NCBI GenBank assembly: GCA_019058275.1
Contig: JAHLVW010000074.1
Location: forward strand, 34,780-98,779
DNA length: 64,000 nucleotides
From: Candidatus Heimdallarchaeota archaeon
GTDB taxonomy: Archaea > Asgardarchaeota > Heimdallarchaeia > JABLTI01
Reading direction: 5' to 3'
Every line of letters starts with the position of its first letter. The first letter of the stretch is position 1. The position numbers were made by a program, and so were the translations under genes. Shown one piece after another: positions 756 through 53,237 of this stretch. The notes below the pieces were generated by a model, which saw nothing but the letters and a program-made list of their open reading frames with translations, did no database searches and had not been told where the DNA came from.

Positions 756-1080
756 AAACACATAGCAGATTGGATATTAGTTGTTTTGTTCACATATTCA
801 CAGAAAAGTTGTGAATTCACGCGAAATAAGGAGAAAATTGTTATTTTGTGAAAAGAAGGAAGGAGAATCCTTCTTTTTCATTAAAAATAAATTAGATTTT
901 AGTTATTTACCTGTATCTTTAAGCTATTTACCCAAAGAATAATTTTTTTATAAAAGAAAATTGTTAATTTCTTAGGTAATTATCCATATATAAGAGACAT
1001 TTTTATTTGTTTATTCAATAAAATAAGCTATTTTTTTTGAGTTTTTGCTTTCTTTTTATTCATATTTCACAATTTCACTT

Positions 1081-1155
1081 GTAAATATTGTGTTCTTTGT
1101 GTATACTGTATATACTGTGTTCATGTATTTACTGTAAATCTGTGAATATATACAC
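1081..1155. repeat. Tandem array of about 8 degenerate palindromic octamers (GTRWWYAY) with about 9-bp period upstream of oapA
   Basis: gtaaatat t gtgttctt t gtgtatac t gtatatac t gtgttcat gtatttac t gtaaatct gtgaatat. Related GTGAA/TTCAC half-sites occur near 638, 787-820 and 1058-1078. Confidence 0.65.
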
Positions 1156-1256
1156 AGTTTTCTATTAAATCTTATGTGGGAAATATGTAGATAATAACAC
1201 TTCTTATGTTCTAAATTTGAAATAAATGAATTAGACTTAGTAATGGAGGACTACTT

Positions 1257-1871
1257 ATGTCTTTAAGTTGGATACAGAAGATCCTTACCAGGAAGAAAAA
1301 GAAAGATGTTAGACTTGCTTTTTATGGTGAGGTAAATGCAGGAAAAACAACATTGGCAAATAAAATTGCTAATGATCTTGGCTACGCTGATCTTGGTCCG
1401 GTTTCTGAAATTCCACATGAAACTCGAAAAGTCTTAAAGTTGGAAAATGCTCAACTTGAAAAAGATGGTGTTGAGGTAAATTTTACTTTATTGGATATGC
1501 CAGGCATTGCATCAACAGTTGACTATCGAAATTTCGTTAAATTTGGATTAACAGAATCTGAAGCAATTCAAAGAGCTAAAGAGGCTACTAAAGGTATTTT
1601 AGAAGCAATAAAAATGATAGATCAAGTTGATATTGCTTTAGTAATTTTAGATTCCACTAAAGTACCTTTTGAACAAGTTAATTTAACGATACTCGGAAAT
1701 TTGCAATTACAAAACATACCGCTTATAATTGTAGCAAATAAAATTGATTTACCTGATTCACGACCTGAATTGGTTCGACAAACTTTTTCAGGACAGACAA
1801 CTGTTGCTGTTTCAGCAAAAACTGGTGATAATGTCGACGAATTATATGATGCTATTATCAGGAGTTCATGA
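1257..1871 (+). CDS. oapA: Era-like small GTPase, origin-associated protein A
   Basis: G1 GEVNAGKTT, G2 PHETR, G3 DMPG, G4 NKID, G5 SAK. The IPHETR and RAKEATKG motifs are typical of the OapA family. GGAGG Shine-Dalgarno (SD) site. Confidence 0.85.
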   Translation: MSLSWIQKILTRKKKKDVRLAFYGEVNAGKTTLANKIANDLGYADLGPVSEIPHETRKVLKLENAQLEKDGVEVNFTLLDMPGIASTVDYRNFVKFGLTESEAIQRAKEATKGILEAIKMIDQVDIALVILDSTKVPFEQVNLTILGNLQLQNIPLIIVANKIDLPDSRPELVRQTFSGQTTVAVSAKTGDNVDELYDAIIRSS

Positions 1872-1881
1872 GGTGCAAAAA

Positions 1882-2244
1882 ATGAAGTATTATATTGATT
1901 ATATTACCAAAACTGCTACAGATAAATTAACCACTTTTGAGAAAATCAAGATGATTATTCGTCTTGTAAGACAAAATAGGGTTTTAATTATTGAAAGTGG
2001 ATTATCTCCTGAGGAAGAAGCTGAATTAATTAAACAAACTATGATGGTTATTGATTTCGATGATTTTATTGGAGTAGATTTCTTTAATTGGGATCGCAAT
2101 TGTAAAGAATCAAAACGATTTTTTAAGAAATCACCTCGAGTAAACGAATCTCGTTATACTGTGGTTGCTCCATCAGCACATGTTAAAGTTATCGAAAATA
2201 GTGAAGATTTACTATCAATTAGATTTGAGCCTCCTGCTCAATGA
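1882..2244 (+). CDS. oapB: DUF2073-type origin-associated protein B
   Basis: EKIKMII...VLIIESGLSPEEEAELIKQTMMVIDFDDFIGV motif, directly after oapA. True start is probably ATG 1882 behind GAGGTG, not 1744. Confidence 0.8.
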   Translation: MKYYIDYITKTATDKLTTFEKIKMIIRLVRQNRVLIIESGLSPEEEAELIKQTMMVIDFDDFIGVDFFNWDRNCKESKRFFKKSPRVNESRYTVVAPSAHVKVIENSEDLLSIRFEPPAQ

Positions 2245-2306
2245 TTTAGTAAATTTTCTTTTTTTCTTTCTAAATAGTAATATATTCCTTTTGTAGCTGT
2301 ATTCCT

Positions 2307-2825
2307 ATGAATAAATCTTTGTTACCTAAAGTTATCCTTATTTCAGGTACACCTGGTGTAGGGAAAACTACTATTAGTGATTTACTTCGTAAACAAGGAT
2401 ATCAAGTATTAAGTTTAAATGAGTTTATATTAGCAAATGGTTTGTTTTTTGGATTAGATTTATCTCGAGATAGTGTAATTGTTGATGAAGAAATTTTACA
2501 ATCAAAATTACTTGAAGAAATTAAGTGTTTTAGTGATTTACTTTTCATTGAGGGCCATAATGCTGAACTTGTACCTTCTAATAGTATTGATAGTGCTTTT
2601 GTTCTACGATGCAACTCAGGTATTTTAAGAGAACGATTGGAATCCTCTCGAGATTACTCAAAAAATAAGATTGAGGAGAATATCAATGCTGAAATTATGG
2701 ATGAATGCCTCTTAGCAATAAAATATCATCATTCATCAACCAAGGTTTTTGAAATTGACACGACTACTTTAACTCCTCATGCTATTGTTAATAAAATCCT
2801 TAATTATATAACAGAAAAAATTTAA
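2307..2825 (+). CDS. AK6/Fap7-type adenylate kinase/ATPase
   Basis: ISGTPGVGKTT P-loop, IEGH motif, LRERL..R.Y...KI.EN..AEI. Confidence 0.85.
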   Translation: MNKSLLPKVILISGTPGVGKTTISDLLRKQGYQVLSLNEFILANGLFFGLDLSRDSVIVDEEILQSKLLEEIKCFSDLLFIEGHNAELVPSNSIDSAFVLRCNSGILRERLESSRDYSKNKIEENINAEIMDECLLAIKYHHSSTKVFEIDTTTLTPHAIVNKILNYITEKI

Positions 2826-2892
2826 AATTGTCCTAAGCGTATATTGATATATTTTAATGTTTATATTTTATTATTAGTCAGAAGGTGGTTTT

Positions 2893-4818
2893 TTGTCACA
2901 AAAGAAAAGAATACCCCAATCTTCATCACCAGATAAGAAAGCTGGTAATAAATCACCTGTGAAAAAAAGAAAAATTTTCACAAAAGCCAATTTTACAAAG
3001 ATATTTCTGCCATCACTATTATTAATTGCCATTATTTTAACACCAGTACTTTTTGAGGTATTTAGTACCCGACATCAAAAAATTGATGATGTAATTGAAA
3101 ACAGATATGGCGATGACTTTAATCCTGATGATGATCGAACACCATTTATCGATATTTTTATTGATGCTGATTTAAATGATTCAGACGGTATTTTAGATGA
3201 CTTTACAAATGGTATTGATGATCCTAATAGAATCTTATTCAAGATATCTCCTACAAATGAGTATCTTTATTGGCGATTAGAAACCTATGATACTTACACC
3301 ATGGATAATTGGGATAAAAACATCACTGTTACTGAAATATCGGGTTATTCCAGCCTTCCCAGCTTTGCTGATGGTGAATTAGAAATTAGTGCAGAACTTT
3401 TATATTCTGATGGATCCTTAGTTGGTTACTTTCCTGCTCCTTATCATTATCAATACGGTGAAAGTTTTTCAAATGATATTTCATTTGATCCTATTAATGA
3501 TTGGACAACTACTAACTTATACGAAGACATGTACAATTGTAAATTAATAGAAGCACAGTTTGATAGTGATATCGGAAATACTACAGTGGACTATAATGTT
3601 TCTTATACTCTTCAAGATAATGAGTATATTAAGAACAATAGTCAAGGTTTCAGTACATTAAATTCCATTGTTTCTTCTAATCAAGTATTAGAAGATAGAT
3701 ACCTTCAAATTCCTCAGGATTATTCACTTTATGCGCCCTATACAACACAAATCGCTAACTCTTTGCTAGATACTTCCAATACAATTTACGAACAAGTTTT
3801 TCGTAATATGATTTGGCTCTCGAGTAATTGCAGTTATGACATTGAAATGCTATTTGGGAATTCTGATGATGCACCTGCAGAAGATGAAGATTATGTTGAA
3901 TGGTTTTTAAATAGACGATCAGGAACTGCTGCTCATTTTGCTGCAGCACTAGCAATGATAAGTAGAATTCAAGATATCCCATCACGAATGGTTGTTGGAT
4001 TCTCTTCAGGTGATCTTATAGGTTCTGAATTTGTTGTACGTGCACAACATATTCACTCTTGGGTAGAGGTATTTATTCCCTTATCTGGTACTATGGGTTA
4101 CTGGGTAGCTTTTGACCCTTCACCTCTGATACCCAGTATTAGAGATCAATACGGAGAAAATACTATTGGTTTTCAACCAGTATTTTATTGTACAAATGAA
4201 TTCTTTATTTCACCATTACATATGATTCCCCAACCTTCTTATCCTTATTTTGTTCCCAATCCCTTATCTGATGCTTGGTATAATGATCCATACGATCCCT
4301 CAAATTGGTATGGTCCTTATGTTAACCGATCAGATTCATTTGATATTTTTGCTTTTTTAGCTAATGGCAAAGATGAGGATTTCTTCCAATATTTATTAAC
4401 AGGTGATCCAGGTGGTTTGGAATTCGTTGAAGATGAACAAATCACATTTATTGATACTACTACTGATACAATTATGGGATCTGCTATAACTAATGCAGAT
4501 GGAAGAGCACAACTAAGTTATAACTATTCAATTTCAGACCCAAGTGGATTACATCTCATTAGTGCTGAGTGGTTAGGTATTCAGGTTCCTACTTATGATC
4601 TTCGTTACTTCCCTGTAAGTTTAATTGAAACAGGTGTAATTGTTACAGGTAGCGTGAATATTAGTTCATATCTTCCACAAGAGATGTATGAAGCAATGCA
4701 AATTCTGACTGTTCCTCAGTTAAATAACTCTTATCAATATGATTTGATTACAAATAATATTAACTTCCTAACTAGTGATTTTCTAATTTGTTCCTATTAT
4801 ACGAAAAAACCTATCTAA
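2893..4818 (+). CDS. Membrane-anchored transglutaminase-like (TgpA-type) protein lacking the catalytic Cys
   Basis: N-terminal TM helix, LYWR..TYD.Y motif, G(TA)AHFA..LA...R...IPSRMVVGF, HSWVEV, FDP. Confidence 0.75.
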   Translation: MSQKKRIPQSSSPDKKAGNKSPVKKRKIFTKANFTKIFLPSLLLIAIILTPVLFEVFSTRHQKIDDVIENRYGDDFNPDDDRTPFIDIFIDADLNDSDGILDDFTNGIDDPNRILFKISPTNEYLYWRLETYDTYTMDNWDKNITVTEISGYSSLPSFADGELEISAELLYSDGSLVGYFPAPYHYQYGESFSNDISFDPINDWTTTNLYEDMYNCKLIEAQFDSDIGNTTVDYNVSYTLQDNEYIKNNSQGFSTLNSIVSSNQVLEDRYLQIPQDYSLYAPYTTQIANSLLDTSNTIYEQVFRNMIWLSSNCSYDIEMLFGNSDDAPAEDEDYVEWFLNRRSGTAAHFAAALAMISRIQDIPSRMVVGFSSGDLIGSEFVVRAQHIHSWVEVFIPLSGTMGYWVAFDPSPLIPSIRDQYGENTIGFQPVFYCTNEFFISPLHMIPQPSYPYFVPNPLSDAWYNDPYDPSNWYGPYVNRSDSFDIFAFLANGKDEDFFQYLLTGDPGGLEFVEDEQITFIDTTTDTIMGSAITNADGRAQLSYNYSISDPSGLHLISAEWLGIQVPTYDLRYFPVSLIETGVIVTGSVNISSYLPQEMYEAMQILTVPQLNNSYQYDLITNNINFLTSDFLICSYYTKKPI

Positions 4819-40529: not shown

Positions 40530-40616
40530 TTTATTTCAAAAAGTTTGGGTTTTTAAGTTAAAATTTAGAATATTTTATGAGTTAACAGTTCAGAAAATAC
40601 CATTTGGGAATGTAAG

Positions 40617-40859
40617 TTGTTGATGCATAACATTGAAAATTTTTCTAAAGCAAAAAGATCAGAAAAAATTACAGTTGAGCATAAAAAAAACATTAAATTC
40701 AAAGAAATTCAGTGCCCTCAAAGTAATTCAAAACTTATTGTATCAAACTGTTACAAATGTCAACGCAGCCAAAAAATCCAAAGTACTCACGAATCAAGAA
40801 GAACTTTAACTTCTATGATTTGTATTTATGGAACCAAATCAGAAGGAGGGTTTGAATGA
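40617..40859 (+). CDS. Small Cys-rich (putative Zn-binding) protein
   Basis: CP..., CYKC, C.Y. Overlaps the next gene by 4 bp (ATGA). Confidence 0.5.
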   Translation: MLMHNIENFSKAKRSEKITVEHKKNIKFKEIQCPQSNSKLIVSNCYKCQRSQKIQSTHESRRTLTSMICIYGTKSEGGFE

Positions 40860-41995
40860 CATTTAATCCACAACTTCTAAAAAATAATAGTAGGAATGTA
40901 AAATTGCAATCAGAGAATAAGGTGTCGGTTTGTTTCGCAACATTTGATGATACAATTGGTCCTATAAGTGCTTATTATAAGTTTTTAGATGATCAATCTG
41001 CAAATGAAATAGCTGTTAAAGTAATGATAGGTTCTTTATCATTACACACAGATGATAATAGTGAGCTTTGTGGTGAGTCAATTATTCCCTTTAGCAAGCA
41101 AAATATGATTGCCTTTTCATATTTATTCACAATTCCTGCTCCAAAACTGAGAGGTGGTCAAAGATCTTGCTCATTAATTGTTCTTATGGATACAAAAGAA
41201 CAACTTCAAATGTATAGAATAGCACCATTTCTCTCTACACAATGCAAGAGAGTTAGCAATTTAATCCGAGAGAAATATGTTTTCGGCAAATCATTGCCAA
41301 ATCTAGTTAAACAAAAAATTGATTCTCTGTTAGACATTCAATCATATAAAGTAGAAATTGAAGAGTTCTATGCGTCTAGAAAAATAACAATAACTAAATC
41401 AAAGACTAAAGGTAGTATGCAGTTTCTAAATAAGGTCATAAAAAAGGATCTAGACAAAGCAATTATGGCTATTTTAATTGGGAGACCTGTAATTGTGACA
41501 GGAGATGAAGTAATGACCGAAATTGCTATTGCAAGTCTCGAGATTTTTGCCCCACATAAAGAACTAAAAAAGGTTTTTTGGACAAATCAAATCGTAGAAG
41601 CTGATTTAATTGGAACAAAAAGGAATATTGCTAAAGCATATGATGATGCTGTTGTAGTTGATCTATTAAAGGGCAAAGTATCAGGTGGAGAATCGAGTAA
41701 ATTCTGCAAAGATTTACTATCAAATCTTCATGGTATAGATGAAAAAGCTGTAGTTCAAAGGGTAAATGACAAAATTAGTGAAATAATCACAAGTGCAAGT
41801 ATACTAGCTGAATTAGCAATGAGAAAAGAAGTATCAAAGGGTGACATTAGTACTGTTGCACCTATGTTTAACAGTGAAAAAATGAGCATTATTGTTACTA
41901 TAGCAAAGAGCATGAATCCCATTTTTTCGAAAAAGATGGATCATTTAGCACCAATAATTGCCAGAGAAGCAAGCACATATGATGTTTTCGCATAA
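40856..41995 (+). CDS. DENN-like protein (uDENN/longin plus cDENN)
   Basis: ATFDDTIGP longin motif, PAPKLRGGQR, AILIGRPVIVTG cDENN motif. Confidence 0.7.
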   Translation: MTFNPQLLKNNSRNVKLQSENKVSVCFATFDDTIGPISAYYKFLDDQSANEIAVKVMIGSLSLHTDDNSELCGESIIPFSKQNMIAFSYLFTIPAPKLRGGQRSCSLIVLMDTKEQLQMYRIAPFLSTQCKRVSNLIREKYVFGKSLPNLVKQKIDSLLDIQSYKVEIEEFYASRKITITKSKTKGSMQFLNKVIKKDLDKAIMAILIGRPVIVTGDEVMTEIAIASLEIFAPHKELKKVFWTNQIVEADLIGTKRNIAKAYDDAVVVDLLKGKVSGGESSKFCKDLLSNLHGIDEKAVVQRVNDKISEIITSASILAELAMRKEVSKGDISTVAPMFNSEKMSIIVTIAKSMNPIFSKKMDHLAPIIAREASTYDVFA

Positions 41996-42014
41996 TTAAG
42001 AGATGAATTTTATC

Positions 42015-42863
42015 TCATTTAGCTTTTTCTAATAATTTCCTTAAATATTCCAAATTCCCTTTACCATCTCGTCTTTCATCAACAGGTGTTTCACAAATAA
42101 AGGGGATTTTTCTAAGTTTTTTTTCTTTTAGCAGTAATTTAAATCCTATTTCACCAATTTTACCTAAACCAATGTGCTCATGTCTGTCTCTTCCTTCACC
42201 TAAGTCAAATTTTGCATCATTTGCATGTATTAATACTAGTTTATTCAAACCAATACAGTTATCTATCTGTTCAATCAGTTTAGTAATAACAGTTTGATCT
42301 CTTAAATCATAACCAGAAGCAAATGCATGACAAGTATCCAAGCATAAACCGAGTTTATTTTGGACATCTGTTTTGGTAATAATATTACAAATATCATCAA
42401 TGTTTGATCCTAATGATTCATTCTTTCCAGCAGTATTCTCGAGCAAAATTATTGCTTTTCCCTCGTAATTTGCAATTGCATTATTCAAAGATCGAATTAC
42501 TTTTTCTATGCCTTTGTCCTTACCAGTTGTCTTGGGACTGCCTAGATGGGTAACAATATAGGGGATTTCAAGTAAATCACATCTATTTAGCTCCTCTTTT
42601 AAAGAAAAAATCGATTTTTCCCACATTTCAGGATCAGGACTAGCTAAATTTGGCAGATATGGCATATGTGCAAAGACTGGTTTAAGATCTGAGCTTGAAA
42701 TATTCGTTTTAAACTCCAAAATCCTTTCATTTGTTAATTCTTTTGATACCCAACTACGTGGATTTCGAGTAAAAATTTGAAAAGTGTCACACCTTAAATC
42801 TATAGCTCTTGGGATTGACTTAGCTATTGAACCTGAAATTGATATATGGGCACCAAATCTCAT
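42015..42863 (-). CDS. nfo: Endonuclease IV
   Basis: GAHIS, QIFTRNPR, HMPYLPNL, LLENTAG, DTCHAF, HANDAK, DRHEHIG, ETP. Confidence 0.95.
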   Translation of the reverse strand: MRFGAHISISGSIAKSIPRAIDLRCDTFQIFTRNPRSWVSKELTNERILEFKTNISSSDLKPVFAHMPYLPNLASPDPEMWEKSIFSLKEELNRCDLLEIPYIVTHLGSPKTTGKDKGIEKVIRSLNNAIANYEGKAIILLENTAGKNESLGSNIDDICNIITKTDVQNKLGLCLDTCHAFASGYDLRDQTVITKLIEQIDNCIGLNKLVLIHANDAKFDLGEGRDRHEHIGLGKIGEIGFKLLLKEKKLRKIPFICETPVDERRDGKGNLEYLRKLLEKAK

Positions 42864-43295
42864 ATTTTCACTATCTTATAAATTTTGATTCATTAAATCT
42901 TCCAAATAAGTCACCAATTAATTAATTTTTTACATTACTTTGATTTAATATCACAAACCTATTATTATTTTTTCAAATACGCGTTAATATAAATCGTTAA
43001 AATTAAAATATTTTAGTCAATTATAAAAAAATCAAATAAAGCAATTTAGTAAAAAATGATTTTTTTGACCAAAATATTCGCATTTTTTTCAACAGAAAAA
43101 TTCCTAAAAAGCAAATTAATCAACAATAGAAACTTCTATTTTCGTATATATAGAGAACTTTTTCGCATATTATGACGCGTTTTCATAGTATTTTTTAGTC
43201 GTAAAAGAAATGTTTAAATGTGTCATAGTTAAATAAAGATTAGAAATTGGTTAAAAGCTAGTTTTATACCAAAAATAAACAGGAGATATATAAAA

Positions 43296-44237
43296 ATGGC
43301 AACACTTCAATTATTCTGTGGCGAACTATTATCAGATATGATGCGCGCTTCCGCAAATCTACTGAAAAAGTATCGCAGACACTTAAATGCAATAAATGTT
43401 TTTCCAGTTGCTGACGGTGACACAGGAGCAAACATGTACTTAACAGTAGAGGCTATTATAGAAGAATTAGATAATAATAAAGCCTTAAACACAATAGAAA
43501 CAGCACAATTAATTGCCCGTGGATCATTCATGGGTGCAACTGGAAATTCAGGGGTTATATTATCACAGTTTTTTGGTGGATTTAGTAATTCTCTGGATAA
43601 TTATAACGAAATAGGACCTACAGAATTCTCACAAGCTTTTGTTGATGGCGCAGCAAAAGCATATGAAGCAGTTCTTAATCCACAAGAAGGAACCATTTTA
43701 ACCGTAATAAGAAAGTCAGCTGAAGCAGCAAGTTTAGCTGCAAAAAATGGCTCTAGTTTCTTAGATATGCTAGATACATCATATGAAGCTGCACAAGGAA
43801 CCCTTGAAAAAACACCAGAATTACTACCAGTGCTCAAAAAAGCAGGAGTAGTAGACGCTGGAGGACAAGGATTCGTCTATATTATGGAAGGATGGATTAA
43901 AACCTTCAAGAATGAAGATCTTGATGATGTCGGTGAAGTAGCTGAAGTTAAAGCAATAGCTCGCGATACAGAAGAAGATGATGAATATCAATTCTGTACA
44001 GAGTTTATCATTGAATCAGATGATCTAACAGCAGAATTCGCAAGAGAAATGCTTGGGATCATGGGTGGATCATTAGTAGTAGCAAAGAATGATAATATGA
44101 TACGAGTCCACATACATACAAATGAACCAAAAGTACTAATAAAACGATGCAAAGAACATGGTGCAATATCCCGACTCAAGATTGACGACATGTCAAAACA
44201 ACACAGAGAATTCTTATTCGTAGAAGAAGCAAGCTAA
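43296..44237 (+). CDS. fakA: Fatty acid kinase FakA-like (DAK2 plus middle domain, no C-terminal domain)
   Basis: NVFPVADGDTGANM, GNSGVILSQ, EGTILTV, GVVDAGGQG, FCTEF, VHIHTNEP. Confidence 0.85.
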   Translation: MATLQLFCGELLSDMMRASANLLKKYRRHLNAINVFPVADGDTGANMYLTVEAIIEELDNNKALNTIETAQLIARGSFMGATGNSGVILSQFFGGFSNSLDNYNEIGPTEFSQAFVDGAAKAYEAVLNPQEGTILTVIRKSAEAASLAAKNGSSFLDMLDTSYEAAQGTLEKTPELLPVLKKAGVVDAGGQGFVYIMEGWIKTFKNEDLDDVGEVAEVKAIARDTEEDDEYQFCTEFIIESDDLTAEFAREMLGIMGGSLVVAKNDNMIRVHIHTNEPKVLIKRCKEHGAISRLKIDDMSKQHREFLFVEEAS

Positions 44238-44255
44238 AATTAGAAATAGAAATAA

Positions 44256-44278
44256 ATTTCCTCCTTTTTGGAGGAAAT
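44256..44278 (+). terminator. Hairpin between fakA and degV
   Basis: ATTTCCTCC-TTTTT-GGAGGAAAT, followed shortly by a T-tract. Confidence 0.5.
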
Positions 44279-44358
44279 AACACTCTTTTTTTTATCAAAT
44301 ACTTTTATTATTGCAATAGTGCTAAATGCTAATGTTAATGGTTTGAGGAAAGTAGGCA

Positions 44359-45201
44359 TTGCAAAAGGTCAAGATAGTAACTGATAGTACATGCGATTTG
44401 CCAGATAAAATAGTGGAAGAATTAGCGATAATAGTCGTACCATTAAAGGTCTTTATGGATGATGCGACATTTACTGCAGGAATTGACCTTACAGCAGAAG
44501 AATTCTATGATAAAATGCCTTTCCTAAGAGATACCCCATCAACAACCCCTCCATCACCAGCCCTGTTTTTCGAAGCGTATGAAGACGCTGCAAGTGAAGC
44601 GGAAACAATAGTCTCAATACATATCTCAAGACGAATGAGTTTTACAATATAATCAGCAGAACAAGCCAGAAGCATGTTACCTATGATGGATATCAGGATT
44701 TTCGACTCCTTTACTACAGGAGCATCATTAGGACTGGTAGTATTAATGGCAGCATGGGCAGTAAATGAAGGGTTAACTATGGACGAAGTATGCGACATAG
44801 TAAAGATTGCGGTAGAACAAGTGAGAGTAATAGGCTTTCCAAGCACGTTAAAGTATCTAGTAAAAGGAGGAAGAATAGGAAGAGCACGAGGATTAGTAGG
44901 GAGATTATTAGGAAGAGTGCCAATACTAACAATAGCTGAAGGCGAAACATCAAGCTTAACAACAGTTCCAGGAGCAGAGGGAGCAATGGATTGGATGATA
45001 GAACACCTGAAAGAAGAAGGATTGGATAGTACATCAATAATAGCATTGACGCATGGAAACATGCCAAATGTAGCGGAAGTATTCAGAAGAAGAGTGGAAG
45101 GAACATTTGGGTGCAGAGTGCAGTACATAGGATTGGTAGGACCAGTAGTAGGGAGCCATTTAGGACCAGGATCACTGTTCTTCACATATATCAAAAAGTA
45201 G
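44359..45201 (+). pseudogene. fakB: DegV/FakB fatty-acid-binding protein interrupted by one in-frame TAA (44650-44652)
   Basis: KIVTDSTCDL, STTPPSP, IHIS..MS.T.*SA, DSFTT, LVKGGRI, GSHLGPG. Both ORF-track pieces are in the same frame, 281 codons in total. Confidence 0.8.
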
Positions 45202-45269
45202 TAAGTATTAGCGGAACTCTTTTAAAAAACAATAAAATAATTGAATGAAACAGGATGTAATGTAAAAAA

Positions 45270-45989
45270 ATGGCAATACATGAAGCAGTAGTATACGTAT
45301 TAGTTCTAATAGGAGGTTATTTGGTAGGAAGCTTTCCAACGGGATGGGTATTAGGAAAGGTAATGAAAGGAATAGATATTAGAGATTATGGGAGCGGGAA
45401 TACTGGCTTTTCAAATGTCTATAGGCTAATAGGGAAAAAAGCAGCTGCCTTAACAATCATAGGTGATGTAGTAATTAAAGGAGGAGTACTAGCTTGGGCA
45501 GCAAGACTGATAGTAGGATTAGTGGTAATACAACCAGATCCAATAAAAGTGTACACTTTCGGTTTTACAGATCTAGTAGGACAAGCAATAGTAGTTGGGG
45601 CAGGAATAATGTCAGTATTAGGACACAACTATCCTGTGTGGCTAAAATTTAAGGGTGGGAAAGGCATGGCAACTACTGCAGGAGTATTCCTTAATTTCGT
45701 ACCAGTATCAACAGTTGGGTTAGCTGTAGTGTGGTTTATCATTGTTTTTACAACAAGATATACCTCGTTAGCAAATGTGGTTACTACTCCAACTTTGCCA
45801 ATATTCATCTTTCTAGAGACCTACTATATAATGAAGTTTGATATTATAACATGCATACCACTCATAATCGGAGGTTTCTTAGCAGGAGTTTTCATTCTCT
45901 TCCGACACAGAGATAATATTAAACGACTCATTACAAAAGAAGAAAGGAAATTTGGCGATAAATCCGAAAGAATAGAAGAAAGTGCTTAA
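45270..45989 (+). CDS. plsY: Acyl-phosphate:glycerol-3-phosphate acyltransferase
   Basis: YLVGSFPTG, DIRDYGSGNTGFSN (motif 1), GHNYP..LKFKGGKGMAT (motif 2), RHRDNIKRL (motif 3). Confidence 0.92.
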   Translation: MAIHEAVVYVLVLIGGYLVGSFPTGWVLGKVMKGIDIRDYGSGNTGFSNVYRLIGKKAAALTIIGDVVIKGGVLAWAARLIVGLVVIQPDPIKVYTFGFTDLVGQAIVVGAGIMSVLGHNYPVWLKFKGGKGMATTAGVFLNFVPVSTVGLAVVWFIIVFTTRYTSLANVVTTPTLPIFIFLETYYIMKFDIITCIPLIIGGFLAGVFILFRHRDNIKRLITKEERKFGDKSERIEESA

Positions 45990-46104
45990 CTCGACAAAAA
46001 TCACTTTCAACTCTTCTTTGTGTGCAATTATTTTTCATCATTTCTGTATATGTACTAGATTTTAGATTATACTTTGAGAATTAAATAATGGTGAAACTAA
46101 AAAA

Positions 46105-46251
46105 ATGAGAAAAATTAATCCTAAAATCCTCGGCATAACATTTATGATCTTATCAATGCTTGTAGCTGGTGGTTTTGCAGTAAAAAATACCATAGCACCT
46201 GGTGGAGTAGGATTAACTGATGACTCAAATCCAGGAAATGGAGGCGAATAA
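46105..46251 (+). CDS. 48-aa putative secreted peptide precursor, copy A
   Basis: Not in the ORF track. MRKINPKILGITFMILSMLVAGGFAVKNTIAPGGVGLTDDSNPGNGGE*, with GGTGA SD. Paralogue of 48116-48262. Confidence 0.8.
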   Translation: MRKINPKILGITFMILSMLVAGGFAVKNTIAPGGVGLTDDSNPGNGGE

Positions 46252-46356
46252 TTCCTCTTTTCCATTATTTTTATTTCAGATATTTTTGTTTCCTTAGATT
46301 TTGGTCTATGTGTAGAAAACTTAAAATGCATTCTTTCGAAAATAGTTTAGATTAAT

Positions 46357-48087
46357 TTGACTGCTTTCAAAATTCCAAATGAAATAAGGCGAGAAATACA
46401 ACTAGTTATTGATGATATTAAAGAAAAAACTTGTTGGAAGCCATTAAGAAATCTTGAAGCATCAAAAATTGAGTTAGGAGATACATCAGAATTTTATGAT
46501 AGTTTTGGAGTAAATAGATTTAATACTAAAATTATTTTTGGTAATTGGATTAATAAAATAAAGCCAGATTATTCAAGGGAGAATATATGGGAAGCTGTCA
46601 TCATAAGGGAAGCATTTTCATATTTCATTAATGAAAATTTATTATTTAACAATCTCAAAGAATTAACGAATTTATTTTTAAACATTTTAATAATCAGCTA
46701 TCTGTTAAAGAAATATAGTGATAAAACAAAGTATCTTAAGATTTCATCAATAAGATATCGTTTTAGAGCTGAACCAGATGGATTACACGAGAAAGAGAAG
46801 ATACTTTTTCTCAAAATTAGTTCGCTTCTTGATGAAATTATCAATCAAGGAATTACATATAAATTAATTTTAGAAACTTATTTGCATTTAGTGGAAGATT
46901 ATTCAGAGGAAGACTTCGATATTGAGGAATTAATCGATGATTTCTCGCGTTTTATTTCAAGTAGTCCTGAAGAAATTGCAGCTCCATTAAATTTCAGAAA
47001 AAGAATGACTGAAATTTTAAGAGAATTAATCTTTGGGGGTTATAAAACATCCGCATTGAAAATCGCTGAAAATCTTGAAATAAACCAATCTACTGTTTCT
47101 AGACAAATAAACAAGATCGTATCTAGGTTTTATGCAAAATGGAGACCAATGAAAAATTGGAAGAAATTAGGTTTATATCCACATATAGTTATCATTCGAT
47201 TTAAAAAAACTGATAATAAGAAAATAAATAGTATTTCAAAAGAACTATTAAAAATTAGATATATTCACCAAATCTATGAAGGTGTAAATTGGGATTATTT
47301 TTATTTATACAGCATTGTTAATTGTCCTCTTATAGTCATTAATTCTATAGAAAATAAACTCATTAACTTAGCAAAAAACAATCAAATACTTTCTTTTGAC
47401 ATTAAATCTATTCTAAGTAGATTAGATAGAACTGCAATATCGAGTAAATCAATTAAACCTACATTGAAAAATTTTGAAGCTTTAATTGAGAATAAAATTC
47501 CAATTGAAAAAATAGCTATATGGAAATCAAGTTGGTTTCATGAAGATGATTTAGAAAATTTAGATAAATCGGATGAAAATATATTACGATTTCTTTCAGT
47601 TTTAAAATCAAATTCTATAACAAGTTATTCAGTTATTGGTTGTTGGGTTCCAGAAGCAAAAAAAATGTTAAAAGATAATGGTTATGACCTAAAGAACGTT
47701 CATGATTGTATGAACTTCTTTAATAAACTACAAAATACAGCTATGCAGAGGAATATACTAAGTTATAGATTAATGATATCACTAAATACATCTTCTTCAA
47801 ATTACTTAATTATTGTTATAAAAACTGATCCAGAAAACAAAAAAGTTAAAAAACTAGTTTCAGATCTTTCATGTTTTGCTTCGATTACCTTTTTCACTTC
47901 CAATAATGAACTTATAATTTCACTTATAGGACCTGAATTTAATGACTCACTTTCAAATATTATACAAAATAGGATCAAGCAAGATTATAATGAATTTGAG
48001 ATTTTCTCAACCAATCTAAAAAATTGGCGATTTGTTCCGTATCATGAATTATATGATTTTGAAAGCAAAAAATGGTTGATTAAATAA
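46357..48087 (+). CDS. Large regulator: helical N-terminal domain, HTH, Lrp/AsnC-like modules
   Basis: HTH SALKIAENLEINQSTVSRQINKI; NWKKLGLYPHIVII; C-terminal FVPYHELYDFESKKW. Confidence 0.7.
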   Translation: MTAFKIPNEIRREIQLVIDDIKEKTCWKPLRNLEASKIELGDTSEFYDSFGVNRFNTKIIFGNWINKIKPDYSRENIWEAVIIREAFSYFINENLLFNNLKELTNLFLNILIISYLLKKYSDKTKYLKISSIRYRFRAEPDGLHEKEKILFLKISSLLDEIINQGITYKLILETYLHLVEDYSEEDFDIEELIDDFSRFISSSPEEIAAPLNFRKRMTEILRELIFGGYKTSALKIAENLEINQSTVSRQINKIVSRFYAKWRPMKNWKKLGLYPHIVIIRFKKTDNKKINSISKELLKIRYIHQIYEGVNWDYFYLYSIVNCPLIVINSIENKLINLAKNNQILSFDIKSILSRLDRTAISSKSIKPTLKNFEALIENKIPIEKIAIWKSSWFHEDDLENLDKSDENILRFLSVLKSNSITSYSVIGCWVPEAKKMLKDNGYDLKNVHDCMNFFNKLQNTAMQRNILSYRLMISLNTSSSNYLIIVIKTDPENKKVKKLVSDLSCFASITFFTSNNELIISLIGPEFNDSLSNIIQNRIKQDYNEFEIFSTNLKNWRFVPYHELYDFESKKWLIK

Positions 48088-48115
48088 AAATAAAAGAAAT
48101 GTTGAAAAGAGGCTT

Positions 48116-48262
48116 TTATTCGCCTCCATTTCCTGGATTTGAGTCATCACTTAGTCCTACTCCACCAGGTGCTATAGTATTTTTTGCTGCAAAACCACCA
48201 GCTACAAGCATTGATAAGATCATTAAGGTAATACCGAGGATTTTAGGATTGATTTTCTTCAC
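48116..48262 (-). CDS. 48-aa putative secreted peptide precursor, copy B
   Basis: GTG start behind GGAG. MKKINPKILGITLMILSMLVAGGFAAKNTIAPGGVGLSDDSNPGNGGE*, 44/48 aa identical to copy A. Confidence 0.8.
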   Translation of the reverse strand: MKKINPKILGITLMILSMLVAGGFAAKNTIAPGGVGLSDDSNPGNGGE

Positions 48263-48489
48263 GTTTTTTAGTCTCCAATTATGATTTTCAAAATAAGATT
48301 CCAAAATAGATTATATTTAAACGACGAAAGCAAAAATAATGCATAAAAAAGGACATTTTAGTGTATTTATTTATCTTCATCAAATAATGACTTCAGAAAC
48401 ATCAATGTTTTTTCTATGTTTATCTAATATCTTTTAATATTTTTTCTCAACATTTTCATCAAATTTGTAGGTGTTAATATACTCATAAT

Positions 48490-49641
48490 TTGACTTTTTA
48501 TTGGGTTGAAAACTTGTACGAAGAAAGAGCATTAACAGATTCAAAATTTCCTAAGCTGAAAGAATTTTTCACTCCAAGTACTACTTCTTGGTTTGTTTTT
48601 GGAAGTATTATACTTGCAGGTATAATTGTAAGTATTTTTCTCTGGGACTTTACTTCATCAGATATGGATGTTTGGAAACAAGCAGCAGAACTTTTGCTAA
48701 GTGGAGAGAATCCTTATGAGACTACTCTCGAGAGTTTCCAATATGAAGGAATTAAACACTTCTATGCTTATTTTCCATTATGGATGTATATTAGCTCTTT
48801 GGTTTTGCTTGGTTTCCCAGAAGGGATGTTCTTTCCGATTATTAAAGGTCTAATTCTCTTATTCGATATACAAGTAGTTGTTTTACTTTACATATTACTA
48901 AAACCAAAAGTAGAAAATGTTTGGCGACTAAAAATACCCATTGCTGTTTGGTTTATAACACCCATGGTTTTGATGACCAGTTCTATGCATGGTAAGTTTG
49001 ATTCTTTGATGTTTGTTTTCATTTTACTTGCATTCATTTTCCATGATCAAGATTATTTCTTTCTCGAGGCTTTCTTCGTTGGTTTAGCAATTCTAACTAA
49101 ACCAATTGCTTTAATTCTTGTTCCATTCTTCTTTCTTCAAAACGTTCGTGAACGCAATTTTGATAAGATTCTTGCTAAGATGGCAACAATGTTAGTCGTT
49201 GCTCTGCTGTTTAGCATTCCTTTCTTAAATGATTTAGAAACATACTTTCAAGGGGTTCTAGGTGTCCATGTTACTCGAGAGCATGATCTAGGTCCAATTT
49301 TCGCTCTACTTTCTCTACCATTTTCATCAGAAAGTGCAGATGCTATTATTCGCATGATTCTTACAGTGTTAATCATAATTGTCTGGGTTGGTTTGATCAT
49401 CCTATCTTATATCAAAGAATACGATCTCTACAAAAGTTCTTTTCTTGCATTTATTTCCTTTAATTCCCTTTATTGGGTTTTCTTGATTCAATACGGTGTT
49501 TGGTGTTATACTTTGTACATACCATTTACTTCAAAATCTAAAATGAAGCACTGGCACTTAGCACTGACTACAGGAATAATTATAGCTTTTTCAACAACAG
49601 CATTAGCTCTAATGGGAGCATTCGTAAAAAATGGTCTATAA
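48490..49641 (+). CDS. GT-C fold membrane glycosyltransferase (GT87/PIG-M-like)
   Basis: SDM.VW...A..LL.GENPY, YAYFPL, GKFD, G.AI..K motifs, about 10 TMs. Confidence 0.75.
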   Translation: MTFYWVENLYEERALTDSKFPKLKEFFTPSTTSWFVFGSIILAGIIVSIFLWDFTSSDMDVWKQAAELLLSGENPYETTLESFQYEGIKHFYAYFPLWMYISSLVLLGFPEGMFFPIIKGLILLFDIQVVVLLYILLKPKVENVWRLKIPIAVWFITPMVLMTSSMHGKFDSLMFVFILLAFIFHDQDYFFLEAFFVGLAILTKPIALILVPFFFLQNVRERNFDKILAKMATMLVVALLFSIPFLNDLETYFQGVLGVHVTREHDLGPIFALLSLPFSSESADAIIRMILTVLIIIVWVGLIILSYIKEYDLYKSSFLAFISFNSLYWVFLIQYGVWCYTLYIPFTSKSKMKHWHLALTTGIIIAFSTTALALMGAFVKNGL

Positions 49642-49698
49642 GCCAAAGGCAATAATCTTTAGGGTTTTTATTCCCAAATTGTTACATTTATTTGATTC

Positions 49699-49986
49699 AT
49701 GATGATATCCAGACCCCAGGAACATTTCTTGCAAGTTAAGTTTGATATTATTGAAAACTTAAAGGATATTCCCAATAACATTCAGTCTATTCTAAGCAAC
49801 GCTATAGCTTTCTTAGTAGCTATTTGTTTTGCAATTGGAGTAGTGTTGGCTATTGTAGGAGCGATTCAGTGGGCAACTGGTTGGGATGAACGTAATGGCA
49901 AAAAAACAATTGTCAAGGGTATTGTTTTAGTTGCTATTTCGTTACTATCAGGAGGAGGTATCTTAGCAGGATATATGTATCTTTGA
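49699..49986 (+). CDS. TrbC/VirB2-like pilin-type small membrane protein
   Basis: Two hydrophobic helices joined by G.I.WATG....GKK.I..GI. Confidence 0.55.
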   Translation: MMISRPQEHFLQVKFDIIENLKDIPNNIQSILSNAIAFLVAICFAIGVVLAIVGAIQWATGWDERNGKKTIVKGIVLVAISLLSGGGILAGYMYL

Positions 49987-50070
49987 CCCTTCATTTAATA
50001 GGAAAGAACTAAAGATAATACGAAAAATTATTAGTTAATATTTTACTCCCAGAAGGTAGAAACGAAGAGA

Positions 50071-51759
50071 GTGTTCAATACTTTGTCTAAAAATTCCAAT
50101 TCTCGAGATAATAATAAAGCTATAGCCATTATTGTTGGTATTTCAACTCCTTCTGAGGTTACTTTAATTGTTGATCCTAAAATCGCTCGAACAACACCTC
50201 TAGAGTTAGGTGAGCTAGTAGTTATTGATTATCCTAAAAATCTCGTACAAAAACCTGTTATTGCTATGATTTCAAAAATCGCTCTAAGTAATGAAAACTT
50301 AGTTGAAAGTTTAATCAAATCTCCTGAATCGATAGATCGTCTTAAATTACTCGGGCATATCGAAGAAGGAGAACGTTTAGGCGCAGCAGCAAGAATTCTA
50401 GGCTATTTAGATGAGGAAAGGGATCACATTGTTACTCCACGTTTTCCACCTTATCCAGGAGCAAAAGTCTCTAGAGCACCTTCTGAACTCTTATCGAAAA
50501 TTTTTGGAAAGGGACACATCTCAGTAGGTGAATTACGCTCACATAAAGGGGTAGAAGTAAAATTAAATGTTGATGAATTGGTCTCAAAACACTTTGCAGT
50601 TCTAGCAATTACCGGAGCGGGTAAATCCTATAGTATCGCAGTAATTGTCTCGAGGATAATCAATAATCTTCAAGGGTCAGTTGTCATTGTTGACCCGCAT
50701 GAGGATTATGTTCCATTTATAAAAAATAAGAATATTAATGGTAATATTACTGTTTTTTCAGCTAAGAGAACAACAGGTAGGCAAAGAATTGCTTTCAAAT
50801 TAAGTAATTTTGGTCATAATGCCCTTCTAGAACTTCTCGAGATACCAGAGCAAGCAACCATTCAAAGGGATTTACTAAGTAGAGCTTATTGGCGTTTACA
50901 AGAAAAGAAAGTTGATTGGGATTTACAAGATCTAAAAAACGAAATTAATGCTATAATAAAAGATCTAAGAGAAGATATAGTAATAGATGATAAAGGAAAG
51001 GAGCAAATTAGAAAGAGTAGTAAAGCAGAAGCAAATCGTTTAGAGAATTCCAAATTTGGTTTGTTCTCGAGAATAGACCTTGCTCCAGCAAGAGATGTAT
51101 TAACCAAAAGTTCAGAACTTCCTGTTTATAATGCAAATGCTCCTTCATTAGTTAAACCAAATCAAATAAGTATAATCACACTAACGGGATTAGGTTCCAA
51201 AACTCAACAAACAATTGTTGATTTAATTGCCAGAAAGATTTTCAATGCTGGCAAAGCACAAGTAAGAAATGAACTAACACCTCATAAATTACCATGTGCA
51301 GTTTTAATGGTTATAGAAGAAGCACATAACTTCATACCTGGTTCAGGTAGATCATCATCAATCTTAAAACAGATTGCTGCAGAAGGAAGAAAGTTCGGTG
51401 TGGGATTAGGTCTCGTTTCACAACGTCCTGGAAGATTAGATAGTGATGTGTTATCACAATGTAACACACAAATCATCCTAAAAATAGTAAATCCTTATGA
51501 TCAGCAACAAATTTTACGATCAAGTGAGAGTTTGAGCGAAGATTTACTAAATGATCTTCCAGCATTAAATGTTGGAGAAGCAGTAATAGTTGGCCCAAGT
51601 TTACCGATACCAGCGTTAGTTAGTATAGCTACATTTGATGGAAAACTTGGAGGTAAAGGAGTTCAAATTACAGAATCTTGGAAAGCAGCTCTTGAAAAAC
51701 AAAAAAGTTCGATAAGAAAACCTCAAAAATATGAAGATGACTTTAAATTGGATAAATAA
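50071..51759 (+). CDS. herA: HerA helicase
   Basis: HAS barrel, HFAVLAITGAGKS, DPH, IEEAH, EGRKFGVGL..VSQRP, SQCNT. Confidence 0.92.
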   Translation: MFNTLSKNSNSRDNNKAIAIIVGISTPSEVTLIVDPKIARTTPLELGELVVIDYPKNLVQKPVIAMISKIALSNENLVESLIKSPESIDRLKLLGHIEEGERLGAAARILGYLDEERDHIVTPRFPPYPGAKVSRAPSELLSKIFGKGHISVGELRSHKGVEVKLNVDELVSKHFAVLAITGAGKSYSIAVIVSRIINNLQGSVVIVDPHEDYVPFIKNKNINGNITVFSAKRTTGRQRIAFKLSNFGHNALLELLEIPEQATIQRDLLSRAYWRLQEKKVDWDLQDLKNEINAIIKDLREDIVIDDKGKEQIRKSSKAEANRLENSKFGLFSRIDLAPARDVLTKSSELPVYNANAPSLVKPNQISIITLTGLGSKTQQTIVDLIARKIFNAGKAQVRNELTPHKLPCAVLMVIEEAHNFIPGSGRSSSILKQIAAEGRKFGVGLGLVSQRPGRLDSDVLSQCNTQIILKIVNPYDQQQILRSSESLSEDLLNDLPALNVGEAVIVGPSLPIPALVSIATFDGKLGGKGVQITESWKAALEKQKSSIRKPQKYEDDFKLDK

Positions 51760-51818
51760 TGGAACTCAATTTATCCAAAATGAAGAATTTATTAATAAAA
51801 TTCGCAGGTGAATAGAAA

Positions 51819-53237
51819 ATTAGCGAGAAAAAGAATAAGGAATATCATTTCTGCCATACTGCTGATTGGCACTTAGATTATTTCCAATATAATAAAAGAG
51901 AGCGTTGGTATGATTTCTTTAAAGCTGCGAATGAATGCACAAAAATGATGATCGAAGAAAAACCAGACTTTGTTATTCATTGTGGTGATATGTTTCATCA
52001 ATTTAGGCCATCTCCTGGAGCTTTACGTTTTGCCATTCAAATACTTGATAAGTTTAGACAAGCAAACATTCCCTTTTATGTGATTAGAGGAAATCATGAT
52101 GCTTCAAAAGCTCAAGCCCAACGATTTGGTGGCACGGTTCTGAAATTCCTAGATGATTTGGGTTATCTTCAGTACGTTCAAGATGAAACAATTGATATCA
52201 ATGAACATATTCGATTTACTGGTATTGGTGAGTACGGCAAAACCACTGGAGATGTTATTGAAAATGTCCTAAGAAACAATCCGCTAGATGAATCCAAATT
52301 CAATATTTTAGCACTTCATGGTTATTTACAAGGGCAAGTAAGTGATTCAATTTTTGATATTTCAGGTTATCAATTAGCAAGTATAGGTTTTGACTACATA
52401 GCATTAGGTCACTATCATAAAGTATGGGAAGAAGCTGAAAACAGTATTTATTGTCCCGGTTCAACTGAACAAACAAGTTTGAACGATTGGGGAAAACCAG
52501 ACAAAGATGATTTCTTTAGAAAATCGGGATATTATAGCATTAAAACAACTTTAAACCCAGAAGAAAATTCTTGGGATTTGAAAGTTGAAAGAAAGGAATT
52601 TGATATTCGACCAAAAGGACGATTCACATACAATTTCACAGATGATTCAACGATTGATGAAATTATGGAAAAAGCTAATGCTTTTGTCAAGAAACATGAT
52701 TTAGAAGGTGCCATCATTAGATATGATTTTGTAGGTGAATTACCTTTAGGAAAGCAAAACTTGGTTAATTTTACAAAACTTCCAGCAATAAAAGAGTCAA
52801 AAGCACTGCATATAATACCAAATCAGCAAGTATCAAACATCATTTTGAGTAAAGCAAAAGCGGGATTAACATCAGAAGAAGCATTAAAAGAATTGCTAGA
52901 AAAATCATATAATGTCAAGAAGAGTTCAGTTAACAAATGGTTAGACATAACTAATGAAACCATTAAGGTTCTTGGGCAAAAAATAATCTCATCTGATTTA
53001 GCAGATGAAGTTAAGGCAATTTACAATTTAGTGTCTGAAATTTCATTACAATTAACTGAATCTGATATCAAAAAAATTGCAACTACAAAAATCAAAACAA
53101 AGAAATCAAAAAGTCAGCTAGCAAAACAACCAAAAACAAGTAAAAAACCAGTAAGCGGACCACCTAAAACTGCTAATCAGAACAATAAGGTGACAAAACA
53201 GGCTGATTTAGAGCATTTCTTTAAGGAGGGAGAGTAG
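51819..53237 (+). CDS. mre11: Mre11 nuclease
   Basis: Motif I HTADWHL lies upstream of the track's ATG, so the start is probably ATT at 51819. Also GDMFH, GNHD, LHG, ALGHYH, PGS. Confidence 0.9.
   Translation: MSEKKNKEYHFCHTADWHLDYFQYNKRERWYDFFKAANECTKMMIEEKPDFVIHCGDMFHQFRPSPGALRFAIQILDKFRQANIPFYVIRGNHDASKAQAQRFGGTVLKFLDDLGYLQYVQDETIDINEHIRFTGIGEYGKTTGDVIENVLRNNPLDESKFNILALHGYLQGQVSDSIFDISGYQLASIGFDYIALGHYHKVWEEAENSIYCPGSTEQTSLNDWGKPDKDDFFRKSGYYSIKTTLNPEENSWDLKVERKEFDIRPKGRFTYNFTDDSTIDEIMEKANAFVKKHDLEGAIIRYDFVGELPLGKQNLVNFTKLPAIKESKALHIIPNQQVSNIILSKAKAGLTSEEALKELLEKSYNVKKSSVNKWLDITNETIKVLGQKIISSDLADEVKAIYNLVSEISLQLTESDIKKIATTKIKTKKSKSQLAKQPKTSKKPVSGPPKTANQNNKVTKQADLEHFFKEGE

Follow-up and report, generated by a model that had tools for sequence, protein, structure and literature searches.

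We analysed a window of 64,000 nucleotides from contig JAHLVW010000074.1 of a metagenome-assembled genome (MAG) of a Candidatus Heimdallarchaeota archaeon, which belongs to the class Heimdallarchaeia (GCA_019058275.1; 4.12 Mb, 92.8% complete, 6.8% estimated contamination). At positions 43296-45989 of the forward strand, the window contains three co-oriented genes in the order short FakA, DegV, PlsY. We think it likely that this operon, which is native to the Heimdallarchaeia, provides fatty-acid activation and the first acylation step of glycerolipid synthesis without acyl carrier protein (ACP) or coenzyme A (CoA). The original prediction had described these genes as a bacterial-type fakA-fakB-plsY cluster in an archaeon. 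The three genes, their positions, and the catalytic motifs claimed for FakA and PlsY are all real, and the module does lie in a heimdallarchaeial genome. But this FakA lacks the C-terminal domain on which FakB docks, which makes it a variant and not a standard bacterial FakA, and the fakB gene is interrupted by a stop codon.

The first gene encodes the only FakA in the genome. The protein matches the Pfam models for Dak2 (145 bits, E = 2.3e-42) and for FakA-like_M (77 bits, E = 8.9e-22), which is the Cys/His/His middle domain (dimerisation/catalytic). It aligns with residues 7-322 of 7w7h_A and with FakA_N of Staphylococcus aureus (7rm7), and its Dak2 domain also aligns with 8vip. The alignment to solved FakA structures shows the Mg-binding DGDTG motif as well as the catalytic Cys (in FCTEF) and His-x-His (in VHIHT); FCTEF and VHIHT align with YCTE and VHVHT of 7w7h_A. 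Furthermore, D40, G41, D42, T43, G44, H272, and H274 are invariant across an alignment of 51 sequences, and the protein from the window has kept every one of them.

The second gene encodes a DegV-family protein, the family to which FakB belongs. Its reading frame is broken by one stop codon (discussed below), and the two halves, which are in the same frame, match positions 1-95 and 107-279 of the DegV profile (PF02645), so that together they make up a full-length DegV (EDD) domain. The intact orthologue of 280 amino acids from near-identical assemblies exceeds the cut-off of TIGR00762 (243.4 bits versus 99.7). Against the FakB1 model (NF038249), the operon's DegV scores 124.1 bits, which is below the cut-off of 350. 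These profile scores place it in the DegV family but do not make it equivalent to any FakB that has been characterised. When compared to FakB2 (4x9x) and to 2dt8, it retains the network of residues that holds the fatty-acid carboxylate in FakB (Thr, the Ser of the LSGT motif, the Arg of GGRIG, and the His of HxGPG). The motifs that align to these two structures are PSTNPPSP, MSFT, KGGRIGRA, and SHLGPG. The protein has S94, which is nearly invariant in the family alignment, and the invariant residues G171 and R172.

The third gene encodes a canonical PlsY (PF02660), which scores above the cut-off of the TIGR00023 equivalog model (155.7 bits versus 137.2). It aligns from end to end with PlsY from Aquifex aeolicus (5xj5, residues 12-230), with an insert of about 17 amino acids after motif 2, and keeps all of the motifs (GSGNxGxxN, D..KG, GHNYP..FKGGKGMAT, and RHRDNIKRL). 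It is the sole canonical copy in the genome; the remaining copies are divergent PlsY-like paralogues without several of these motifs.

Features of the operon in the window (positions are those of the 64,000-nucleotide stretch)
Feature	Position	Strand	Basis or remark
Short FakA (FakA_NL), 313 aa	43296..44237	+	Dak2 and FakA-like_M matches (Pfam)
Putative DegV/FakB fatty-acid-binding subunit, 280 codons with one in-frame stop	44359..45201	+	DegV profile
DegV, first of the two listed open reading frames	44359-44652	+	Same frame as the second
DegV, second of the two listed open reading frames	44674-45201	+	Same frame as the first
TAA nonsense codon within degV	44650..44652	+	GAA (Glu) in all relatives examined
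Canonical PlsY, acyl-phosphate:glycerol-phosphate acyltransferase, 239 aa	45270..45989	+	TIGR00023 equivalog

These assignments suggest a pathway of three steps. A free fatty acid would be bound by the DegV/FakB protein; the short FakA, which probably dimerises through its middle domain, would phosphorylate the carboxylate of the fatty acid with ATP to give an acyl-phosphate; and PlsY, in the membrane, would use the acyl-phosphate to acylate glycerol phosphate, yielding 1-acyl-glycerol phosphate (lysophosphatidic acid). Because FakA has no FakA_C, and because the same kind of DegV is fused at that place in some bacteria, we infer that the operon's DegV docks on the kinase domain in place of FakA_C. 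The enzymatic activity, the docking mode of DegV, the acceptor (glycerol-3-phosphate, G3P, or glycerol-1-phosphate, G1P), and the fate of the product are all predictions from sequence. A complex prediction for the short FakA with the operon's DegV, run with two alignments, scored 0.00 and gave no verdict.

The FakA reading frame stops at residue 313, and the missing part is the FakB-binding, EDD-fold C-terminal domain (FakA_C, PF13684). We did not find FakA_C elsewhere in the genome, where the only matches were weak ones to DegV paralogues. In agreement with this, FakA covers only positions 1-299 of the 530 in the YloV model (TIGR03599) and falls below its cut-off (330.4 bits versus 396.1), as it does for the FakA model NF038248 (241.6 bits versus 975). 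Archaeal FakA frames are of 307-374 amino acids or are split, while complete bacterial FakA genes in our sample encode 503-630 amino acids; full-length frames among archaea were seen in just two genomes, both from one family (f7). A large protein database contains 44 clusters of 312-317 amino acids from Heimdall and other Asgard MAGs, which are named only "DAK2 domain-containing protein." Judged by these lengths, the short FakA is the archaeal norm, that is, a class and not a truncation. There is biochemical precedent for function without FakA_C: S. aureus FakA_NL, from which the C domain was removed, is an active kinase (Km for FakB1 of 0.99 µM versus 0.09 µM), and S. aureus FakA_N and FakA_L function as separate proteins (PMC9136124). 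In Streptococcus suis, the structure of the complex shows FakA_C, which has the EDD fold, packed on the kinase domain in the way that DhaK pairs with DhaL (PMC10848957).

Among the closest known systems are the FakA/FakB-PlsY systems of Firmicutes (S. aureus, S. suis, and Bacillus subtilis; 7rm7, 7w7h, and 4x9x). These share the DGDTG of Dak2, the Cys/His/His domain, the Thr/Ser/Arg/His network of DegV, and the PlsY motifs, so the predicted chemistry is the same. In contrast to the archaeal protein, Firmicute FakA has a FakB-binding C-terminal domain of about 220 amino acids. The archaeal genes also differ in forming one operon, in lying far below the NCBIfam equivalog cut-offs for FakA and FakB (see above), and in belonging to a host without detected PlsX, ACP-based FASII, or PlsC. 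A match in domain content and order is given by uncharacterised bacterial fusions of Dak2, FakA_M, and DegV (about 600-680 amino acids), which, like the archaeal FakA_NL-DegV-PlsY, are without FakA_C. The fusions are single polypeptides, whereas the archaeal genes are separate (in the window, FakA and DegV are 121 nucleotides apart), and a sister relationship between them is not secured (p = 0.29 in the approximately unbiased, or AU, test). DhaK/DhaL is likewise a two-part kinase: the nucleotide-binding Dak2 (DhaL-type) subunit acts on a substrate that a second protein, with the EDD fold, presents to it, as we propose for FakA and DegV. In DhaK, however, the dihydroxyacetone is bound covalently, and that system has neither the FakA middle domain nor a link to PlsY.

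What else does the host genome encode that bears on this pathway? Profile searches found no PlsX in it, and no carrier protein was found outside of a 3,581-amino-acid megasynthase of the fatty-acid/polyketide type (contig C22, positions 40564-53000, which is L228:565-12998), so FakAB is the sole visible source of acyl-phosphate. The megasynthase has the domain order NMO-type ER-KS-AT-KS-ACP-KR-DH-PPTase, and a carboxyltransferase gene adjoins it on the upstream side. (Its KS domain is 94% identical to one in another Heimdall MAG; the next best match, at 51%, is from an Elusimicrobiales bacterium.) It is a possible endogenous source of fatty acids, which means that these need not come from a partner organism; nothing that we found indicates the partner-derived supply that had been suggested.

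The genome also has 13 PlsY-like matches (about 10 of them intact, and divergent) and 24 DegV matches (about 14 of them intact, full-length paralogues that could be aligned). They are scattered over the genome (C8:15871-19507, C70:9184-11291, C54:84606-86182, C52:56289-57856, and contigs C115, C109, C42, and C34), with several adjacent DegV/PlsY-like pairs and several copies with in-frame stops. In the PlsY-like copies, GGKG is changed to GGQG, GGRG, or GGNG and the C-terminal HR.NI.RL is missing. The His of the carboxylate network is replaced in 5 of the 14 DegV paralogues (by Tyr in four and by Ile in one). Both expansions are specific to the window's family, which we call f1, except that DegV is also expanded in the Heimdallarchaeaceae (f2); f3-f6 are further families of Heimdallarchaeia. 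Next to one broken PlsY and broken DegV, on the reverse strand, is a partial patatin-like phospholipase gene (C52:55039-55821, which is L118:3039-3821) that covers only positions 91-190 of its profile.

Several observations weigh against our proposal. The first is that FakA lacks the domain on which FakB docks, and the corresponding short construct from S. aureus has about ten-fold weaker affinity for FakB1. The second is that, in the window's assembly, the degV frame is broken by the in-frame TAA. Third, 3 of 10 congeners (G006-G008) are without both FakA and the canonical PlsY; nfo and RPA, which flank the operon elsewhere, are missing from these three as well, so gene loss and a region that was not binned are indistinguishable. 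The remaining points concern the rest of the pathway. A PlsC-type acyltransferase (PF01553) was found neither in the host genome nor in the 11 further f1 genomes. The C domain of GpsA was found in 0 of 41 genomes, and a weak match to PF01210 is PanE. We found glycerol-1-phosphate dehydrogenase (G1PDH) in none of 12 f1 genomes, but in 29 of 29 from other Heimdallarchaeia families. A true GlpK was found neither in the host genome nor in the family (GlpA/GlpD and UgpQ were not searched for). The genome does encode CDP-archaeol synthase (CarS), and the cells presumably continue to make the usual archaeal lipids. Also, in the literature consulted, the one cited lipid study of an Asgard archaeon in culture, a Lokiarchaeon and so not of this class, reported solely archaeal lipids (PMC13400652).

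We considered candidates for some of these missing enzymes and rejected them. The weak Pfam matches that might have been G1PDH or GpsA in the host genome are ordinary Fe-alcohol dehydrogenases and PanE. The candidate for GlpK (C1:1771-3318, reverse strand) is XylB-like, as it scores 386 bits against TIGR01312 (cut-off 380) and 364 against GlpK (cut-off 590). It is the only FGGY kinase in the window's family that resembles GlpK, while the other sampled families of Heimdallarchaeia have a true GlpK. GGGPS (PF01884) was not found in the family either, but the model also misses most Heimdallarchaeaceae, which do possess G1PDH, so it is too insensitive to prove absence. "Gerdarchaeota," which may or may not be the window's family, have been reported to lack G1PDH (bioRxiv 10.1101/858530). 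Searches for PlsC-type acyltransferases found none in f1, f2, or the one genome from f5, but did find them in f3, f4, and f6. Because few independent events are involved, this pattern of G1PDH and PlsC across families is suggestive only. Overall, with no PlsC, GpsA, true GlpK, or G1PDH found, the supply of the acceptor and the route to a diacyl lipid are unaccounted for. The predicted route to ester lipids therefore holds for the first acylation and not beyond it.

These gaps are also an argument for a different reading, in which the enzymes are what they seem but make a minor or specialised acyl-glycerol-phosphate product and not bulk membrane lipid. Candidates for the product include lipid anchors, lyso-lipids, and hybrid ether/ester lipids; the reaction might also serve as a sink that stores or detoxifies free fatty acids, and the acceptor might be G1P or something else. 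Besides the missing enzymes and the presence of CarS, this reading is favoured by the finding that bacterial PlsY accepts both G1P and G3P (PMC13400652), and by the roughly 10 PlsY-like and 14 intact DegV paralogues, which suggest that acceptors or donors have diversified. Yet the operon's PlsY scores above the equivalog cut-off, and none of the motifs for glycerol phosphate or acyl-phosphate is missing from it. Sequence cannot separate a specialised product from a general one, and we regard the specialised product as rather unlikely.

A broader idea is that the window's family and the Heimdallarchaeaceae have a PlsC-independent lipid system based on acyl-phosphate. In this scheme, one FakA without a C domain would charge many DegV carriers (a genome can have as many as two dozen or so DegV matches), each with its own PlsY-like acyltransferase, which has altered motifs and is often encoded next to it. 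Fatty acids from the megasynthase would then be built into glycerolipids of the ester or hybrid ether/ester type, perhaps with the second acylation done in this way too, in a lineage without G1PDH. Taken with all of its parts, this is a tentative scheme that we would not expect to hold as a whole.

Another possibility is that the operon is a decaying relic in the strain from the window, with fakB a pseudogene and the pathway on its way to being lost. The TAA in degV is the obvious reason to suspect this. Other DegV and PlsY copies in the genome also have in-frame stops, a broken degV-plsY pair lies beside the patatin fragment on contig C52, and the operon was not found in the three congeners mentioned above. 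However, FakA and PlsY are intact with all of their catalytic residues, and the three genes are under purifying selection across the genus (see below). Furthermore, two other assemblies, GCA_050009915.1 (on a 1.55-Mb contig) and the Logan assembly of DRR463595, contain a FakA identical to that of the window, and in both of them DegV is intact, with 280 amino acids. The window differs from them at 13 of 8,942 bases (99.85% identity). One of the 13 single-nucleotide polymorphisms (SNPs), at position 44650, is T in the window and G in both of the other assemblies, and this is what creates the TAA; the congeners have Glu here as well. Since the stop is one of just 13 SNPs relative to assemblies with an intact degV, it is very recent or an error. 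As judged from these comparisons, the TAA is either a nonsense SNP that arose very recently and is private to the window's assembly or a mistake in the consensus, and it does not characterise the lineage. (Recoding of the stop codon was ruled out: TAA, TAG, and TGA all interrupt members of the family, and the sister strains read GAA.) We consider decay of the pathway to be quite improbable. In any case, the module works in the window's strain only if the TAA is an artefact of the assembly or the population, or if one of the intact DegV paralogues (about 14 exist) substitutes for the operon's protein.

Turning to whether the operon is native, five congeneric MAGs share the order nfo, short FakA, DegV, PlsY, with FakA identities of 82-98%, and the sister strain has the FakA-DegV-PlsY cluster on its 1.55-Mb contig. 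The flanking genes are archaeal (a eukaryote-like RPA, HerA-Mre11-Rad50, HypD, and a folliculin/longin-like protein). Within the genus, pairwise dN/dS is 0.09-0.18 for all three genes, which indicates purifying selection. The GC content of the operon (0.37-0.41) is above the mean for genes in this genome (0.333 ± 0.028), while GC at third codon positions (GC3) in FakA is at the genome median. We considered the GC content as a sign of recent transfer, but the deviation is modest and is contradicted by the conservation across the genus. On this evidence, the cluster is a native, conserved Heimdallarchaeial operon and no chimera. A bacterial contaminant or a chimeric join, which would fit the bacterial type of the genes (about 40% identity to homologues from Bacillota and Chloroflexota), their GC content, and the estimated contamination of the genome, is very improbable, given that independent assemblies (including the 1.55-Mb contig and the Logan assembly) have the same order and flanks, that the adjoining genes are archaeal and FakA has typical GC3, that the closest homologues (73-100% identity) are all from Heimdall or other Asgard MAGs, and that the canonical PlsY proteins of five Heimdallarchaeia families form one clade (support 95). 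Thus, synteny, purifying selection, and the wide spread within the Heimdallarchaeia contradict the chimeric assembly that the original prediction had named among the findings that would refute it.

Two of the neighbouring genes are of interest in their own right. Two genes upstream of the operon, with nfo in between, is an open reading frame of 379 amino acids (40856-41995, forward strand) with weak matches to Folliculin and C9orf72-like (longin/DENN-type) proteins; its synteny is conserved, and it resembles the "eukaryotic signature" proteins of Asgard archaea. Directly downstream of plsY is a frame of 576 amino acids (46357-48087, forward strand) that could be assigned to no family and has faint matches to helix-turn-helix domains of the Lrp/LysM type at residues 214-317, approximately. 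Some congeners have this gene downstream of the operon too.

We surveyed 301 Asgard genomes, of which 223 belong to families other than those of the Heimdallarchaeia. The FakA middle domain is present in 58 of the 301, all 58 of them Heimdallarchaeia, and in 0 of the 223. The PlsY family is more widespread (116 of 301 genomes), so among the sampled Asgards, PlsY outside of the Heimdallarchaeia has no FakA partner. This includes a non-Heimdall family (f14; for example, G191:C6:56828-62954) with PlsY-domain frames of about 400-430 amino acids, which in some cases form tandem groups; none of the genomes sampled from f14 gave a match to the FakA middle domain. (Our phylum-wide search for DegV used a threshold of E ≤ 1e-60, which was too strict to be informative about weak DegV homologues outside of the Heimdallarchaeia.)

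Within the Heimdallarchaeia, a second family (f3) has the same three-gene order with overlapping reading frames. In the Heimdallarchaeaceae, the parts are dispersed and FakA is split into an N-terminal protein (about 210-230 amino acids) and a middle-domain protein (about 100-110 amino acids). For instance, the complete genome of Ca. Heimdallarchaeum aukensis (G016) has two stand-alone Dak2 (FakA_N) proteins and one separate middle-domain protein; these pieces of FakA are unlinked (C1:57741-57977, 600337-600828, and 1635915-1636397), and PlsY is elsewhere. Outside of the Asgard archaea, the Thermoplasmata MAG UBA9212 (L144; DUKC01000210.1, positions 1029-4261) has a short FakA (312 amino acids), DegV (349 amino acids), and two copies of PlsY, in the same order and again with overlapping frames. 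One of these PlsY copies falls within the clade of canonical Heimdallarchaeial PlsY, which suggests transfer between archaea.

In bacteria, single-chain fusions of Dak2, FakA_M, and a true DegV occur in Maridesulfovibrio, in Spirochaetota, and in one uncultured bacterium. There are further clusters of such fusions, of 602-680 amino acids, and in three bacterial loci plsY is directly downstream of the fused gene.

The bacterial ancestry of the operon's genes is clear, with best identities to bacterial proteins of about 35-45%. In the PlsY tree, the window's protein groups with those of the congeners (support 100) and then with the canonical PlsY of f2, f4, f5, and f6 and the Thermoplasmata copy (support 95); this canonical archaeal clade is sister to a clade from Bacillota (support 82). 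In a quick tree of DegV, the operon's protein and the DegV domains from the bacterial fusions are sister groups (SH-aLRT 84), and the 14 intact DegV paralogues of the host form a clade of their own (support 98). Grouping the operon's DegV with the archaeal paralogues was not rejected by the AU test (p = 0.29, as above). In the FakA tree, the archaeal forms lie in a basal polytomy outside of the main bacterial crown. Because the three gene trees disagree, we do not claim that the genes were transferred together, nor do we name a donor.

PlsY has been known from archaea since 2017: homologues of PlsY and PlsC were described from Asgard and Marine Group II/III archaea, reportedly by Villanueva (2017) and then by Coleman (2019, PMC6431249) and Manoharan (2019, PMC6737245). 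These studies judged the Asgard PlsY to be a horizontal acquisition from Bacteria, found no PlsX in archaea, and left the acyl donor and the function of archaeal PlsY open (PMC6431249, PMC6737245); reviews have called the function of these homologues unresolved. The PlsY described here is from the same family, but it is physically linked to a candidate supply of acyl-phosphate, and among the sampled Asgard genomes, this link between PlsY and Fak is confined to the Heimdallarchaeia. Our searches on Asgard, Heimdall, or archaeal PlsY and Fak found no paper that links FakAB to archaeal PlsY and none that names a source of acyl-phosphate for it. This agrees with the earlier view that such a supply was not known to have been described.

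The operon gives archaeal PlsY a concrete candidate route to acyl-phosphate, which would fill the missing acyl-donor step and which could be tested by expression. The natural class of FakA without a C domain, in its separate, split, and DegV-fused forms, also bears on how Fak recognises FakB. The host belongs to the archaeal class that is closest to eukaryotes, and a relevance to eukaryogenesis had been suggested. To our knowledge, neither Fak nor PlsY is used by eukaryotes, so that suggestion was overstated and any connection is indirect: the operon informs the plasticity of Asgard membranes and not the direct ancestry of eukaryotic lipid enzymes. Finally, the megasynthase, the failure to find G1PDH or PlsC in the window's family, and the expansion of DegV and PlsY-like proteins all point the same way, and they turn ester-lipid synthesis in these archaea, on the far side of the "lipid divide," into a specific hypothesis that lipidomics and enzymology can address.

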